From a virus (lineage: Duplodnaviria; Heunggongvirae; Uroviricota; Caudoviricetes), in the IMG/VR virus record IMGVR_UViG_3300020109_000007, positions 47,463 through 111,462 of that record: 64,000 nt of DNA; one strand, 5' to 3'. The translations under genes and the position numbers were made by a program. Positions 4,235 through 63,815 of the stretch are shown piece by piece. The notes below the pieces were generated by a model that saw only the letters and a list, made by a program, of their open reading frames with translations, was not told the DNA's origin and did no database searches. How positions within the stretch are numbered: position 1 is the first letter of the stretch; each line of letters begins with the position of its first letter.

Positions 4235-4308
4235 GGTTGTCTCTCTGCTCTTGATGTTGCCATTATAACTTGTTGGAACCTGCGAGTCAAGAACTAATTT
4301 TTGGCTGC

Positions 4309-4680
4309 TTAAGGCTCTTTAGGAATTGACTTTAAGATTGGACGGAGCTGCTCAATTTTAAACAGCTCAGTGTGACCTCCAAACTTACGAGAGGCTGTAT
4401 ACTTGTAATCGCCCCATAACTCATGAAGATATTGCTCTAAATAGTATATATCTTCCAGTCTACCTGTAACTGTCTTTTGAATTCGTATGTCGTACCCAGT
4501 AAATCCGTTAGCACGTTTAATTACATGCCGCCAATCTTTACCCTTGGCAATTCCAATCTTAATACATTCTCTCTTGCTGGTCTTAACATCTACCAAGACT
4601 ACACAATAAAGAACAGCCTCAACATCTCGCTCTTCTGGGTTATTTTTGAAATATGTCTCGTTATAGATTCCCAGACTCAT
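4309..4680 (-). CDS. Small GIY-YIG-like (T5orf172-type) putative endonuclease
   Basis: VLYCVVLVDV...IKIGIAKG...R then KFGGHTELF, the same C-terminal signature as the other T5orf172-like ORFs. It is inserted between the two ligase fragments. Confidence 0.45.
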   Translation of the reverse strand: MSLGIYNETYFKNNPEERDVEAVLYCVVLVDVKTSKRECIKIGIAKGKDWRHVIKRANGFTGYDIRIQKTVTGRLEDIYYLEQYLHELWGDYKYTASRKFGGHTELFKIEQLRPILKSIPKEP

Positions 4681-4933
4681 TCGTGATCCAATCCTTTAGC
4701 TCGGATGCAGAACAAGAACCAATTTTACGAGAAACCTCCTCTGTACCCTTTAATAACACAAAACTGGGAATAGAGCGAATTCCATATTCGGCCCTTAATT
4801 GAGGGTTATCATCAATATTAACTTCTGATAGCACTACCTCGTCCTGCAGCTCTTCTACCACTTGGATAACAGTAGGAGCCATCGCCTTGCACGGACCGCA
4901 CCAATCTGCATAAAATTTAAGTAATGTTAACAA
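4661..4933 (-). CDS. Thioredoxin
   Basis: 90 aa with the canonical WCGPCK active site and a thioredoxin-fold C-terminus (IRSIPSFVLLK). Confidence 0.85.
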   Translation of the reverse strand: MLTLLKFYADWCGPCKAMAPTVIQVVEELQDEVVLSEVNIDDNPQLRAEYGIRSIPSFVLLKGTEEVSRKIGSCSASELKDWITNESGNL

Positions 4934-5862
4934 TCTATTCTCCTTACTACTCGCGGAATAATCTCGCCAGATCGAATGACTTCAACATTGCAGCCGATCT
5001 CTAGACCTAATTCGCGAATATAGCCTATATTGTGCAGAGTCGCCCTCTGCACTTGAGCATCACCGATCATTACAGGTTCTAGAATCGCTACCGGGGCCAC
5101 CACTCCAGAACGTCCCACCTGCCATTGAACAGCATTGAGAGTAGTAATTACACCCTGCTGCACCTCTTTAAGCGCGTAAGCGCCTCGGGGGTGCTTGTCG
5201 GTGAAGCCTAGCTTATTAAAATCGTAAGTGCTATTTACACGAAATACGCGTCCATCGTGAGGGAACTGCTCCCACTCACCAGCCGTGATAACGTTAAATC
5301 CGTCCTCTACCAACCAATTCATTGAGTCAGTATAAGAGGCGAAAATACAATTGTCACTCTGTACACCGTATGCTACAAAAGTAAGCTTACGACTAGCAAA
5401 TTCATCCAGATTTTTAAGTCCAAGAGCACCAGCTGCGTAGTTTCTAGAGTTAGGTATTGACTTCTCAGCGACTACCTCCCCAGTAACTTGCATAACGTCT
5501 CCGCCATAACAGTTAGGAGGAGCAATCAAACGCATCTTGTCAGTAATATCTAGCCCAGCTTTACCGTCACCGCGCGTAAGCGCGAGAACCAGGTTTCCAT
5601 CTACATAGAGTAGTGATACTGCTGCACCATCTAATTTAGGCGTCTCGATAACCTCACCTGGAAGTTCGATTTGCTTTCCACCAACAAAACACTTTTGCAA
5701 AGAGTACATTCTATGAGCGTGAGGAATTGCTCGACTCAAGTCTACAGGAGCCCCAAGCTGCTCAAACCCATGTAGCTCTGCCAGACGATCAAACTCGGTA
5801 TCACTGATAACAGGCTCGCCAGCATAATACTTAGCAGCTGCGTACTCTAGGAAAGCTTTCAC
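4927..5862 (-). CDS. NAD-dependent DNA ligase, N-terminal fragment (adenylation + OB domains)
   Basis: KxDG adenylation motif KLDGAAVSL. The OB-domain pattern AVQWQVGRSGVVAPVAILEPV...RATLHN ends just before the position of the Zn finger in LigA. Confidence 0.8.
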   Translation of the reverse strand: MKAFLEYAAAKYYAGEPVISDTEFDRLAELHGFEQLGAPVDLSRAIPHAHRMYSLQKCFVGGKQIELPGEVIETPKLDGAAVSLLYVDGNLVLALTRGDGKAGLDITDKMRLIAPPNCYGGDVMQVTGEVVAEKSIPNSRNYAAGALGLKNLDEFASRKLTFVAYGVQSDNCIFASYTDSMNWLVEDGFNVITAGEWEQFPHDGRVFRVNSTYDFNKLGFTDKHPRGAYALKEVQQGVITTLNAVQWQVGRSGVVAPVAILEPVMIGDAQVQRATLHNIGYIRELGLEIGCNVEVIRSGEIIPRVVRRIDC

Positions 5863-6146
5863 GGATACATATGCTCCACTAATTCTTTAAATTCTTGAAC
5901 TATAACTTCTTTTTGCTCTGCTAGTGACAAAATCTCACACAAACCAGCAAAAAGCTCTTTGCTATTTTCGATACCTAAAGGCATGGATACTCCCTCATTA
6001 GAATGGCACCATTCGCCCTCAAAGTCTCTGTAAAATTTACGAAGATACAGATATTCTACACCTCGAAACTCGTTAATGCCGAGTCGAATTTGAATATCTT
6101 TTTCTTCGTCATAATGTACTATTCTACTATATATCTCATCGGCCAC
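5859..6146 (-). CDS. Hypothetical protein
   Basis: 95-aa ORF in the minus-strand operon context. Confidence 0.3.
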   Translation of the reverse strand: MADEIYSRIVHYDEEKDIQIRLGINEFRGVEYLYLRKFYRDFEGEWCHSNEGVSMPLGIENSKELFAGLCEILSLAEQKEVIVQEFKELVEHMYP

Positions 6147-6411
6147 TCTTGCCTTCCTTTAGCGAGTGACTTAAAGCCACAACGCTGGTAACATTAGCAA
6201 CCTTCATGAGCCTGTATGCGTCAACGTCCCAGCACCACATAAGCACTGTGTCGTCAGTCTCTCTAGCTCTATTCTCCTTGTCACGAATATACGGGTTGTC
6301 AAAGTCTAGAGTGCATACATTATACTTCAGCTTGTTGGACTCGGCACTTCTATAGTTAATGATAGCTTCGCCGCACTCCTTAACAGAGCTAATTAGTTCT
6401 TCTTTTGTCAT
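6136..6411 (-). CDS. Hypothetical protein
   Basis: 91-aa ORF. Confidence 0.3.
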   Translation of the reverse strand: MTKEELISSVKECGEAIINYRSAESNKLKYNVCTLDFDNPYIRDKENRARETDDTVLMWCWDVDAYRLMKVANVTSVVALSHSLKEGKSGR

Positions 6412-6496
6412 TATTATCCTCGTCCGGCAGATTGGCTATTTGTTGCGGGCACGAGCAAGCATCAGGCTAGAAAAAATCTAGCCTGATGCAGTACGC

Positions 6497-6871
6497 TTAC
6501 TTGTTGTTTACAGCTTCGATGATCTCTGCAAAATGCAGAGCAGCCTTACCTGTCAGCTTGCTCACGATCTCGGAGTCAGCTTCCTGCCCCGCAGCCTCGA
6601 TAGCTGCATTGAGGCGTGCATGAGCCTCATCCTTGCTCACTCGTGTAGAAGCCTTCTTCTCACCGCCAGAACTGGATGAGGAAGACTTAGTGGCTGGAGT
6701 CTTCTTAACGTAGACGTCCGCCTGGCTGAGAATACGACGAACGCCATTTGGCGACTTACCGATTTCTTCAGCAATATCGTTAACAATGTCCATAGAGTTA
6801 TCGGCATTAGGCTCAGCGTCCTTATAACGCTTAATAACGTCTGCCTTAAGCTCCTCGGTCCATTCACTCAT
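6497..6871 (-). CDS. Hypothetical protein with two HeH/Rho-N-like motifs flanking a Ser/Lys-rich linker
   Basis: DIAEEIGKSPNGVRRIL and KLTGKAALHFAEII, related to the repeats in 2772..3494. Confidence 0.35.
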   Translation of the reverse strand: MSEWTEELKADVIKRYKDAEPNADNSMDIVNDIAEEIGKSPNGVRRILSQADVYVKKTPATKSSSSSSGGEKKASTRVSKDEAHARLNAAIEAAGQEADSEIVSKLTGKAALHFAEIIEAVNNK

Positions 6872-62447: not shown

Positions 62448-62482
62448 TTGACACAAAAATAATTATGGGCTAAAATCGGCGC
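62448..62482 (+). promoter_or_regulatory. Plus-strand promoter-like module + hairpin (62485-62508)
   Basis: ttttcgcTTGACAcaaaaataattatggGCTAAAATCGGCGCG, then attgggagcccgaaggctcccaat. Confidence 0.5.
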
Positions 62483-62510
62483 GAATTGGGAGCCCGAAGG
62501 CTCCCAATCG

Positions 62511-63119
62511 TTAGAGGGTAAAGAGCGGCGGCTGCTCCGGTTCCGGCGAAACATACTTGCTTGACTTTACCTGCCAGTCATAGTCAGACAGATCGTGGCG
62601 ATTGACCATGAAGTGCCCATATTGGGCGGGAGTCATGCGAAGGCGAATGGACCCGCGAAGAGCGATCGCTTCAATAGCAGCCTTGGCGTCGGCCAAGCCC
62701 ATGCAAGTGCCCGAATAGTTGCCATATTCGTCACGGATTTGAGAAGTGCGCTCGCGAGTAGCTTCGCGAAGCGCCTTGATGTTGCTAATCTTGCGGGTAG
62801 TAAGCCCAATCGAATTGCGCGGAGCGTGAAGAATAATCTCGATCATAGCACGCTTCCTTTCGTTAGCGGCAATTGCATTTGCGAGAATATCGCCCAGATT
62901 TTCACCGCGATTGCGAATAAGCCATTTGTCTTGATAGCAGTAATCTCTACCATCCAGATACCAATTATCATTGGTATCATCCGCGGGTGATTCCTTGGTG
63001 TGGAAGGCAGTCTCGGTATTAAGCCCGTAGTGTCGAGTGCCCCTCCCTCCAAAGGTGACAGGAACAACCCGCCCCGTCGCCTTTTCCACCGCTTCCAAGG
63101 GCTTGCTCAAATCCAACAT
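62511..63119 (-). CDS. Hypothetical protein, paralogue of 53790..54197
   Basis: 202 aa. See 53790..54197. Confidence 0.4.
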   Translation of the reverse strand: MLDLSKPLEAVEKATGRVVPVTFGGRGTRHYGLNTETAFHTKESPADDTNDNWYLDGRDYCYQDKWLIRNRGENLGDILANAIAANERKRAMIEIILHAPRNSIGLTTRKISNIKALREATRERTSQIRDEYGNYSGTCMGLADAKAAIEAIALRGSIRLRMTPAQYGHFMVNRHDLSDYDWQVKSSKYVSPEPEQPPLFTL

Positions 63120-63130
63120 CTTCTGTCTCC

Positions 63131-63175
63131 TGTCTTGATGACTCCTTATAGCGCACCCAAGCTAGGCTGTCAACA
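63131..63175 (-). promoter_or_regulatory. Minus-strand sigma70-type promoter
   Basis: gtcttgatgactccttatag...tgtcaac. Confidence 0.45.
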
Positions 63176-63654
63176 AGAAAAATCAGGATATTTGCTATTG
63201 ACACGCTCGACAAAACTCGTCATAATGGGCTGACGACCTGTGAAAACGGCGCGATGTTATAACATAACACGCTGGAGTGAAAAGAAAAGGGCTTCGGCCC
63301 TTTTCTTATTACCACCGAGCCGGGTCGGTGTCGAGTCCCGCCCTAGCCTCCTCCAACGTGCAGTCCGTAAGCGAGTTCAGCAGCAGGCCGGACGCCGTGC
63401 GATGCTCCACCGTATAGAGCGGGCCATCGCGATGAATGGAAACCGTGCTACCATCTGCCAGCTTCGTCATGATTATTCTCCGAAAGCGATGTTGGAAACC
63501 ATCTGATTGAGCATCCGGCGAGCCGTTGCGCGATCATCCTTCGTGGCCTTAGGATTGTGGGCCAGATCGTGAAGGTAGCGGTAGAAGCTCATTGTCTGTC
63601 TCCGTTCTTGATGACTCATCTTACTGCTAGAGCGGAGTGGCGTCAACAGAAAAA

Positions 63655-63815
63655 TAGAAAATATTTTCTATTGACATGGGGGCGGTTATTAGACTATAAT
63701 TCCACCCAGCTACCTCGTCTCCCCCGCACGTGTAAAATTTAAAATTACAAATTCCAATTAAGGTGCCAAAATTTTAGAGCTTGACACCAACCCCACATAC
63801 ATACTATAATTGCAC
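63655..63815 (+). promoter_or_regulatory. Two tandem canonical plus-strand promoters
   Basis: TTGACAtgggggcggttattagaCTATAAT and TTGACAccaaccccacatacatacTATAAT, upstream of plus-strand ORFs beginning at 63864 and 63950. Confidence 0.5.

Follow-up and report, generated by a model that had tools for sequence, protein, structure and literature searches.

A conserved box at the predicted transcription start of early and pre-early promoters in a T5-like phage

Introduction

Bacteriophage T5 carries dozens of co-oriented near-consensus sigma-70 promoters (PN25, P25, P26, P28, PH207, and about 25 others in NC_005859), with the early ones located in the early region. Its annotated promoters follow the consensus AAAAATT-TTGCT-N17-TATAAT-ATATTC-ATAAATTGA-GAGAGG, which extends past the transcription start into an initial transcribed sequence (ITS) that is likewise conserved. 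The same early cassette occurs in Vibrio phage pVp-1 (Demerecviridae, Ermolyevavirinae), in about 20 copies within 48 kb. T4-type phages likewise repeat an early-promoter module, sometimes with a stem-loop (PeSL), although they belong to another phage family and use another consensus. These promoter-stem-loop modules are a possible recombination substrate, and their spread by duplication or recombination has been proposed.

The ITS can govern promoter output. An ITS change can shift the strength of a promoter in vivo by more than 10-fold, and (T/C)G near +6 retards escape, whereas GA or GG promotes it (PMC5961368). Escape is the rate-limiting step at the N25 promoter, whose native purine-rich ITS has evolved to make it fast (PMC12464699). 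Both T5 N25 and T7 A1 have an ITS that is purine rich on the nontemplate strand, avoids YG, and carries GA or GG near +6.

Here we describe a promoter family in a window of 64,000 nt, the whole stretch of viral DNA analyzed. Judged from its sequence, the window belongs to an uncultured, distant T5-like phage. It encodes an A1 homologue (41-43% identity), a DnaB-like helicase, a split NAD ligase, ThyX, and 29 tRNA genes, and one strand carries all of its early and pre-early genes. Besides, it contains a permuted tmRNA, which hints at a non-enterobacterial host.

Results

An earlier note had described one promoter consensus repeated more than 20 times on the minus strand. We confirmed that all 23 listed sites carry a sigma-70-type -35/-10 pair on that strand (TTGACT or TTGACA with a TATAAT-like hexamer, spacer of 16-17 bp), and we found at least six further family members (-35 coordinates 9460, 18463, 24380, 42589, 59730, and 61158). 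Exact copies of TTGACT-N16-18-TATAAT number 11 on the minus strand and one on the plus strand (0.05 expected), and TTTAGTTCTTGACT with at most three mismatches has 32 matches against 9.2 expected. The promoter copies are all intergenic and co-oriented with genes, and the predicted +1 is usually followed within 16-24 nt by a Shine-Dalgarno sequence and start codon, or else by a tRNA gene (after box promoters, tRNA-Val past a 7-nt leader, tRNA-Leu from +42, and tRNA-Asn from +95). These positions, together with a geometry matching that of T5 PN25 (TATAAT, 6 nt, A+1 T+2), agree with the reading of the family as a consensus -10 that is preceded by an extended -35 and followed by a conserved ITS. 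Conservation is confined to blocks, namely the upstream block, -35, -10, and ITS, whereas spacer positions hold only about 0.1-0.5 bit. Certain copies are fused to terminator-like hairpins. The candidate early promoters, all on the minus strand, are as follows; "box" denotes ATCAAGAG, +1 is predicted, and "added" marks promoters outside the earlier list.

4248..4300, minus: box, drives ligase subunit B; TTGACT 4290-4285, TATAAT 4267-4262, +1 4255 ATCAAGAG; orthologous promoter conserved in relative L348
6891..6943, minus: no box; TTTAGTTCTTGACT-N17-TATAAT, start CTAACAAC
9418..9470, minus: added; TTGCCT-N17-TATAAT, start ATAAAGGA
17078..17130, minus: box (ATCAAGAC); +1 17085
18421..18473, minus: added; TTGACT-N17-TATAAT, start AACAAAGA
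21236..21288, minus: box; +1 21243; tRNA-Asn from +95
24338..24390, minus: added, no box; TTTAGTTCTTGACT-N17-TATACT
24652..24704, minus: box (ATCAAGAC); +1 24659; tRNA-Leu at +42
26751..26803, minus: box; +1 26758
27081..27133, minus: box (ATCAAGAC); +1 27088; start codon +20
28447..28499, minus: box; +1 28454; 7-nt leader, then tRNA-Val
29619..29671, minus: no box; TTTAGTTCTTGACT-N17-TATATT
36693..36745, minus: no box; TTGACT-N17-TAATAT
41292..41344, minus: box; +1 41299; start codon +24
42547..42599, minus: added, degenerate box (cTCAAGAA); TTGACT-N17-TATAAT
45899..45951, minus: degenerate start ACAAAGAA; -35 in the loop of a terminator-like hairpin
47650..47701, minus: box; 5-nt gap, TAATAT, +1 47657; start codon +16
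49827..49879, minus: degenerate box ATCAGAAG
51236..51288, minus: no box; -35 within a GGCCGC/GCGGCC hairpin, then a T-run
51734..51786, minus: no box; TTGACA-N17-TATGAT

The copies at 55.5-63.7 kb, where GC is about 0.50 against about 0.43 in the rest of the window, form a pre-early sub-class of their own, with TTTTTCTGTTGAC(A/G), often TATAAG, and gagtc ahead of the box; of the 10 promoters listed for this region, 7 have the box, either with no more than one change or with a 1-nt insertion.

55542..55594, minus: pre-early type, box; TATAAG, +1 55549; 5' end pairs with downstream GCTCTTGAT
55873..55925, minus: pre-early type, box (ATCAAGAC); +1 55880
56361..56413, minus: box; -10 TATAAC, +1 56368
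58863-58835, minus: promoter upstream of A1; TTAACA-N17-TATAAT
59689..59740, minus: added, degenerate box ATCAGGAA; TTGCAA-N16-TATATT; drives phosphatase-like ORF 59152-59664
61116..61168, minus: added; TTGACA-N17-TAAAGT, start ATCGAAAC
61614..61665, minus: box; +1 61621
62392..62444, minus: box with 1-nt insertion (ATCAAAGAG); +1 62399
63132..63183, minus: box; TATAAG, 5-nt gap, +1 63139; drives ORF 62511-63119
63605..63656, minus: box (ATCAAGAA); -10 TAAGAT, +1 63612

On the opposite strand, eight promoter-like elements (TTGACA-N17-TAAAATCGGCGC plus hairpin) are positioned back-to-back with the pre-early promoters and antisense to them.

55234..55315, plus: TTGACA-N17-CAAAATCGGCGC plus hairpin; outside the family of the earlier note
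56439..56503, plus: TTGACA-N17-TAAAATCGGCGC plus hairpin; back-to-back with promoter 56403
58776..58853, plus: face-to-face with minus-strand promoter 58863-58835 upstream of A1
59755..59828, plus: with hairpin; back-to-back with promoter 59730
60322..60383, plus: hairpin abuts stop codon of ORF 60389-60667
60748..60810, plus: hairpin abuts stop codon of ORF 60812-61102
61669..61729, plus: TTGACG, with hairpin; 13 bp between its -35 and that of promoter 61655
62448..62509, plus: with hairpin, which abuts stop codon of ORF 62511-63119; 13 bp between its -35 and that of promoter 62434

Allowing at most one change, ATCAAGAG lies at the predicted +1, 5-6 nt past the -10 hexamer, at 16 sites (+1 at 4255, 17085, 21243, 24659, 26758, 27088, 28454, 41299, 47657, 55549, 55880, 56368, 61621, 62399, 63139, and 63612). 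The measured gap replaces the 5-8 nt given previously. Of the 23 listed copies, the box is present in only 16 (at most one mismatch or a 1-nt insertion), and the other seven (6898, 29626, 36700, 45906, 49834, 51243, and 51741) have other purine-rich starts. Of 21 minus-strand copies of ATCAAGA, 15 begin 5-6 nt past a -10 hexamer paired with a -35, against a chance expectation that we estimate at about 0.03 (44 promoter-like sites x 2 offsets / 64,000 positions); the remaining copies (six on the minus strand and eight on the plus strand) are at background level. The exact box is missing from about half of the early promoters, whose core is equally perfect; thus, a promoter can function without the box, and the presence of the box is unrelated to core strength.

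The predicted transcripts start with AUCAAGAG, and in most mRNAs the box is the entire 5' untranslated region before the Shine-Dalgarno sequence. It precedes tRNA genes as well and is therefore not translation-specific. The box leaders contain neither boxA nor a boxB-like hairpin, nor a conserved hairpin of another kind; dyad symmetry is absent from the box, and a -10-like pause element from the ITS. Mean pairing probability of nucleotides 1-8 was 0.44 in box leaders versus 0.38 in non-box leaders. A 5'-terminal hairpin with downstream CTTGAT is found in three or four copies (+1 4255, 55549, and 56368), and that of the ligase promoter is missing from most orthologues.

The box is purine rich, with GA at +6/+7 and no pause-prone YG near +6. 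Purines make up 74% of +1 to +10 against a background of 52%. At +5 to +7, YG is present in a single promoter of 28 and GA or GG in 22 of 28, where 23% would be expected in either case. The purine bias at +9 to +20 partly reflects the Shine-Dalgarno sequence.

Comparison with related phages revealed the same cassette architecture in T5 and pVp-1, with ATAAATTGA as ITS: an A/T-rich upstream block, -35, 17 bp, and -10, followed by a 6-nt discriminator, conserved ITS, Shine-Dalgarno sequence, and start codon. The window resembles T5 in all of these blocks (TATAAT and the A+1 T+2 start included), in an ITS that continues into the Shine-Dalgarno sequence, in tRNA genes under certain promoters, and in terminators that abut promoters. 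It differs in the upstream block (AAAAATT in T5 versus T.AA.tTAGTTC), the -35 (TTGCT(a) versus (TTC)TTGACT), the discriminator (ATATT(c) versus G(a/g)nTTn), and the ITS (ATAAATTGA versus ATCAAGAG). Moreover, early and pre-early promoters share the box in the window, whereas T5 PH22 lacks the early-type ITS. The term phage-specific, suggested earlier for the box, fits only at the level of this clade; T5-like phages in general have this architecture with a different box. The nearest relative, L348, retrieved by protein similarity, keeps ATCAAGAGCAGAGAG exactly with a spacer matching at only 5 of 17 positions; relatives retrieved via an unrelated motif retain ATCAAGA at pre-early promoters, and a ligase-orthologue clade has ATAGAAATTAAGAGAG instead. 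The box appears to be under selection in this clade.

Discussion

We consider it probable that these are the usual set of strong sigma-70-type pre-early and early promoters of an uncultured T5-like phage, in which ATCAAGAG is an ITS selected for fast polymerase escape. The host housekeeping (sigma-70-type) RNA polymerase would read both classes through a cassette consisting of an A/T-rich block (T.AA.tTAGTTC, about -48 to -36), a -35 of TTGACT (early) or TTGAC(A/G) (pre-early), a nonconserved 17-bp spacer, TATAAT, and a 6-nt discriminator starting with G. Transcription would begin at the A of ATCAAGAG, with a Shine-Dalgarno sequence and start codon, or a tRNA gene, within about 20 nt. ATCAAGAG would let the polymerase quit a tightly bound near-consensus promoter quickly, as the native T5 PN25 ITS does. 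ITS escape function has been shown only with E. coli RNA polymerase, on N25, A1, lambda PR, lacUV5, and deoB; as the permuted tmRNA hints at a host outside the enterobacteria, the E. coli escape rules may not transfer to this phage.

An 8-nt box kept exactly implies more specificity than a demand for purines alone would explain. This excess would suit a mark at -6 to +8 (the G-start discriminator plus ATCAAGAG) by which a phage factor, such as a gpT5.026-type RNA polymerase-binding protein or a DNA-binding repressor on +1, might time box promoters, that is, nearly all pre-early and about half of early promoters, on or off. There is precedent in T5, the temporal classes of which differ chiefly in the discriminator and in which gpT5.026 weakens polymerase binding to -5/+2 (PMC7472727). 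The prevalence of the box in the pre-early region, its exact-or-absent occurrence without gradation, and its conservation in relatives also fit. However, tblastx found no homologues of T5.026 or other T5 early regulators, the box lacks dyad symmetry, and, being common to pre-early and early promoters, it cannot alone separate these two classes. We regard such a mark as possible but unlikely.

It is improbable that the box is functionless and was carried along as whole cassettes were duplicated, recombined, or gene-converted within the genome. The numerous co-oriented copies, the hairpins fused to some of them (as in T4-type modules, although hairpins overlap only some window copies), and the TATACTgagttcATCAAGA common to neighboring copies 26793 and 27123 would agree with copying, but within the genome the spacers that separate the conserved blocks show almost no conservation. 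Across phages, orthologous promoters match at 5/17 spacer positions and are identical at 15/15 in the box, which argues for purifying selection on the box and not for recent copying.

A role in RNA, in which the common 5' leader influences the stability of mRNAs or the loading of ribosomes, or is recognized by an RNA-binding protein or nuclease of the phage, would suit the position of the box as full leader of most mRNAs and the 5'-terminal hairpins of a few copies. We find it quite doubtful: an identical box heads the tRNA transcripts at 28454, 24659, and 21243, and box leaders have no conserved structure, with pairing close to that of non-box leaders and the ligase-promoter hairpin absent from most orthologues.

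Anti-termination, through a nut/boxA-like or Q-type site, or sigma appropriation, as the earlier note suggested, is very improbable. CCGCTCTTGAT, which is complementary to the box plus CGG, resembles the boxA consensus CGCTCTT(T)A, but it lies on the strand that these promoters do not transcribe. No boxB-like or put-like conserved hairpin lies downstream, and the ITS lacks a -10-like pause element. Sigma appropriation acts on promoters without a perfect -35, whereas here a canonical -35 stands at 17 bp, the reverse of the MotA/AsiA-type arrangement.

pVp-1 retains T5-type boxes (AAAAA-TTGCTA ... TATAAT agttcc ATAAA(G)TTGA) despite a different host, whereas the clade of the window has replaced them; ATCAAGAG is the clade-specific replacement of ATAAATTGA, and uncultured relatives retain it with diverged spacers. 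The box is this lineage's own form of a well-known T5 feature rather than a novel type of signal.

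Minus-strand promoters and their conserved box

All 23 intervals that the earlier note had assigned to one minus-strand promoter consensus, between 4243 and 63655, were found to contain a -35/-10 pair with a 16- to 17-bp spacer on that strand (23/23). The pairs are of the sigma-70 type, with a TTGACA-like -35 and a TATAAT-like -10 element 17 ± 1 bp apart. The window has 12 perfect copies of TTGACT-N16-18-TATAAT, 11 of them on the minus strand and one on the plus strand, whereas 0.05 copies are expected from dinucleotide shuffles, and the upstream string TTTAGTTCTTGACT (at most three mismatches) was found 32 times in the window against 9.2 expected. 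The sites lie in intergenic gaps and point in the same direction as the downstream gene; in most copies a Shine-Dalgarno sequence and a start codon follow 14 to 27 nt downstream, and otherwise a tRNA gene follows. Counted from the predicted +1, this distance is 16 to 24 nt in most copies. Their prediction from sequence as sigma-70-type promoters is strongly supported. The listed sites are real, and at least six members had been overlooked (-35 at 24380, 18463, 42589, 9460, 59730, and 61158).

The box, a conserved ATCAAGAG with the core ATCAAGA at the predicted +1, is less uniform than had been claimed: 16 of the 23 sites carry it (with up to one mismatch or a 1-nt insertion), and the other 7 have different purine-rich starts. 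The gap between the -10 element and the box, given as 5 to 8 nt, measures 5 to 6 nt. Among the minus-strand ATCAAGA copies (n = 21), 15 start 5 to 6 nt past a -10 hexamer having a -35 partner, where we estimate a chance expectation of about 0.03; other copies on both strands occur at background frequency.

tRNA genes behind box promoters
+1 at 28454, minus strand, tRNA-Val with a 7-nt leader
Minus strand, tRNA-Leu beginning at +42
Minus strand, tRNA-Asn beginning at +95

The phage and its early and pre-early regions

Judged by sequence, the window derives from a distant T5-like phage and represents a new T5-like lineage. The genome is T5-like in that its early region is confined to one strand and it has a tRNA cluster, whose genes are intermixed with small ORFs, as in T5. 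The product of ORF 56987-58975 is homologous to the T5 pre-early protein A1 and shares 41 to 43% identity with A1 of T5-like phages from Serratia, Erwinia, Klebsiella, and Escherichia. Also encoded are a DnaB-like helicase, a split NAD ligase, ThyX, and a HAD-type phosphatase; between this helicase and those of cultured Demerecviridae, identity is only about 30%. Megablast of 12 kb against phage records gave no match, and a protein-pattern search of IMG/VR found no relatives of A1. Since the GC-richer segment at 55.5-64 kb contains A1 and the phosphatase-like gene, we regard it as the pre-early block; the rest of the window is early region.

Features of the window beside the box promoters
9784-28447 (9.7-28.4 kb), minus strand, 29 tRNA genes, including two tRNA-Asn, two tRNA-Met, two tRNA-Gly, and three tRNA-Leu
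35159-35350, minus strand, permuted (two-piece) tmRNA (Rfam RF04321, 90.6 bits; ARAGORN 35068-35380; tag VNDNDMEVAQAA)
-35 at 40736, minus strand, promoter of ORF 40082-40702
-35 at 38785, minus strand, promoter of ORF 37973-38806 (DUF4379 zinc finger)
-35 at 34259, minus strand, promoter of ORF 33575-34225
53527-54224, plus strand, small unit dividing the early and pre-early blocks (promoter 53527; ORFs 53576-54197; bidirectional terminator 54200-54224)
63671 and 63781 (63671-63810), plus strand, perfect TTGACA-N18-TATAAT promoters at the window's right edge, diverging from the pre-early block

Blastn of the permuted tmRNA against phage records gave no match. Permuted tmRNA occurs, for example, in Alphaproteobacteria, and the phage copy may point to a host having such a tmRNA, e.g., a member of that class. 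Besides, three near-identical TTGACA-N17-TATAAT promoters stand ahead of endonuclease-like ORFs, with about 6 to 20 nt from the -10 element to the start codon; these ORFs look like mobile endonuclease genes with their own promoter.

Anatomy of the promoter cassette

When 28 copies (20 early, 8 pre-early) are aligned at the -10 hexamer, the conserved blocks are an upstream T.AA.tTAGTTC (about 1 to 1.3 bit per position), the -35 and -10 elements, a discriminator starting with G, and the box, and the 17-bp spacer is essentially unconserved (0.1 to 0.5 bit per position). Among these copies, the pre-early ones make up a sub-class with TTTTTCTGTTGAC(A/G), a -10 element often ending in G (TATAAG), and gagtc preceding the box. 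Thus, as in T5, more than 20 co-oriented promoters share blocks beyond the hexamers and have variable spacers. In the T5 early promoter PN25, TATAATAGATTCAT covers -12 to +2 (PMC7472727); since the geometry here is the same, the predicted transcription start is most likely the A of ATCAAGAG.

TCTTGA in the -35 extension and TCAAGA in the box are exact reverse complements, which gives all early-type box promoters (e.g., 4248-4300 and 21236-21288) a 6-nt inverted repeat about 34 bp apart; this is probably a coincidence, since T5- and pVp-1-type promoters have no such repeat. Several promoters are fused to terminators: a GC-rich hairpin holds the -35 element in its loop or stem, and its T-run forms the spacer just before the -10 element.

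Terminator-promoter fusions
51236-51288, minus strand
45899-45951, minus strand
49827-49879, minus strand
55873-55935, minus strand
21236-21300, minus strand

Comparison with T5, pVp-1, and uncultured relatives

The T5 record has about 27 promoters annotated in its first 50 kb, and those extracted share AAAAATT-n-TTGCT-N17-TATAAT-ATATTC-ATAAATTGA-(G)AGAGG. Vibrio phage pVp-1, which belongs to a different subfamily and infects a different host, carries about 20 near-copies of this cassette, and hence a long promoter-leader cassette including the initial transcribed sequence (ITS) is a family trait, with ATAAATTGA as its widespread form. Comparison of the consensus with promoters of related phages, as proposed in the earlier note, revealed a common architecture with T5 and pVp-1, although the conserved blocks differ in sequence: the window has T.AA.tTAGTTC, TTGACT, Ga.TT., and ATCAAGAG in place of AAAAATT, TTGCTa, ATATTc, and ATAAATTGA.

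In an uncultured clade retrieved through the ligase-B protein (54 to 57% identity), the orthologous promoter carries ATAGAAATTAAGAGAG. The nearest relative (L348; ligase identity, 71%), likewise found by protein similarity, keeps all 15/15 positions of ATCAAGAGCAGAGAG at the orthologous promoter, whereas the spacer matches at 5/17 and the discriminator at 3/6. In five contigs found via a different motif (L111, L122, L126, L140, and L150), the gene strand has TTGACA-N17-TA(T/A)AAG-(a/g)g(t/g)gc-ATCAAGA, and pattern searches found the full promoter with box in further related contigs with 38 to 50% GC. This conservation pattern shows the box to be a clade-specific replacement of the T5-type ITS, kept by purifying selection. 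We rejected the 14-mer TTTAGTTCTTGACT as a clade marker: 34 of its 118 viral occurrences (L205-L313) have a TATAAT-like -10 element at exactly 17 bp, and many of the contigs seem by appearance unrelated to the window, with other discriminators and start regions. Used by many apparently unrelated viral promoters, the 14-mer is not clade specific but a widely used extended -35 promoter form. Literature searches with the motif strings yielded unrelated primer sequences only. At the level of sequence, the promoter set is confirmed as a known architecture with new conserved boxes.

Possible functions of the box

The box would act as an ITS that speeds escape of the polymerase from the promoter, which is likely and the best-supported function in terms of agreement with published rules. 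The T5 promoter N25 is escape limited, its native purine-rich ITS evolved for faster escape, and a pyrimidine-rich "anti" ITS performs about 10-fold worse (PMC12464699). Data from a large ITS library show that escape is slowed by (T/C)G near +6 and favored by GA or GG, and Kammerer et al., as cited in that study, found >10-fold ITS effects in vivo (PMC5961368). In the window promoters, purines make up 74% of +1 to +10 (background, 52%), YG occurs at +5 to +7 in 1 of 28 (23% expected), and GA or GG in 22 of 28 (23% expected); the consensus box has G at +6 and A at +7. These published escape rules, worked out with E. coli RNA polymerase, may not carry over to the host of this phage.

As caveats to the escape reading, the exact box is missing from half of the early promoters, whose cores are no less perfect, and the exact 8-nt conservation goes beyond what purine richness alone needs; across the full promoter table box presence is not associated with core-promoter perfection. 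The box may instead be a discrete signal, a class-specific regulatory target. In T5, it is chiefly the discriminator that sets the temporal classes apart, and gpT5.026 loosens RNA polymerase contacts at -5/+2 (PMC7472727). The all-or-none distribution of the box would suit such a signal. However, the box is common to pre-early and early promoters, and tblastx of T5 1-50 kb against the window detected no homologue of T5.026 or other T5 regulators, the matches being A1 and an HNH endonuclease only.

A role at the RNA level, in the leader, is argued against because the box also heads tRNA promoters and the leaders have no conserved structure, as RNA folding of their first 50 nt indicated. Mean pairing probability over the first 8 nt is 0.44 in box leaders versus 0.38 in non-box leaders. 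A 5'-terminal stem-loop of the box with a downstream CTTGAT is strong in only 3 to 4 of 16 leaders, not above non-box leaders, and is not kept in orthologues. The box was likewise rejected as a translation enhancer, since it also starts tRNA transcripts; with three box promoters heading tRNA genes, any role specific to translation is disfavored. That the box hitch-hiked on duplicated cassettes is contradicted by the spacers, which are unconserved inside the genome and between orthologues.

The earlier note had proposed an anti-termination or sigma-appropriation site, whose defining features are absent. The sole resemblance to boxA is CCGCTCTTGAT, which lies on the non-transcribed strand; the transcript reads AUCAAGAG and has neither a CGCUCUUUA-like boxA nor a conserved boxB hairpin of the lambda N/nut or rrn type. 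A lambda Q arrangement would call for a -10-like pause element within the ITS and a Q-binding element in the -35/-10 spacer; it does not fit, as ATCAAG shares 2 of 6 positions with TATAAT and the spacers show no conservation. This poor -10 match also led us to reject a sigma-dependent pause element. In T4 sigma appropriation a MotA box at about -30 replaces the -35 element, whereas nearly all copies here have a consensus -35 with 17-bp spacing, and the approximately 20 window ORFs scanned gave no match to AsiA or MotA. Finally, an IHF site (WATCAANNNNTTR) was rejected by inspection because the TTR part is missing, and a start prone to NAD capping (preference, HRRASWW) is unlikely given the pyrimidines at -2/-1.

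Antisense promoter-hairpin elements

The pre-early block also contains eight plus-strand copies, outside the box promoter family, of (A/T-rich)TTTCGC-TTGACA-N17-TAAAATCGGCGC with a strong hairpin of variable sequence directly after; the 12-mer TAAAATCGGCGC is identical in 7 of the 8.

Antisense elements
55234-62510, plus strand, -35 starts at 55234, 56439, 58776, 59755, 60322, 60748, 61669, and 62448

Every element lies in an intergenic gap, and its hairpin adjoins the stop codon of the upstream minus-strand ORF. Most stand back-to-back with a minus-strand box promoter (-35 elements just 13 bp apart in two pairs), and one faces the promoter upstream of A1, an arrangement kept in relatives. Such elements were also found in L111, L118, L126, L163, L165, and L170 but are absent from T5. 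Viral sequences are enriched for the motif, with at least 96 IMG/VR stretches (3 to 4 copies in several) matching the exact pattern against 27 stretches in 596 Gb of bacterial genomes, and we rejected a host-promoter mimic on this comparison. A strong hairpin lies just downstream in 36% of 58 non-redundant viral copies versus 5% of random windows, and the flanking genes lie antisense to the element in 27 of the 30 decidable cases and share its strand in 3. A T5-type nick site was dismissed, as the major T5 nicks fall between GA and GCGCAGGG and only the minimal Pu-GCGC is in common; so was a canonical sense-strand intrinsic terminator, the U-run lying 6 to 9 nt past the stem, behind GCGCCG.

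The elements may serve antisense transcription, act as a roadblock against read-through, or do something else. We consider it improbable that the box and the G-start discriminator form a clade-specific control signal, read by a phage factor that times every pre-early promoter and about half of the early ones, with convergent transcription or parked polymerase at the virus-specific back-to-back antisense promoters and hairpins insulating or shutting off genes in the pre-early block.

Implications

These results change no concept and their novelty is modest, the main interest being the comparison and the side findings, of which the antisense promoter-hairpin elements and the phage-borne permuted tmRNA are the more puzzling. 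The approximately 30 predicted very strong, compact promoter-leader cassettes are possible parts, and ATCAAGAG offers a natural second ITS for testing promoter-escape rules. The conserved ITS box is replaceable as a unit (ATAAATTGA to ATCAAGAG) with the architecture unchanged, and the classic T5 finding of highly conserved early promoters with a functional transcribed region now reaches a deep uncultured T5-like branch.
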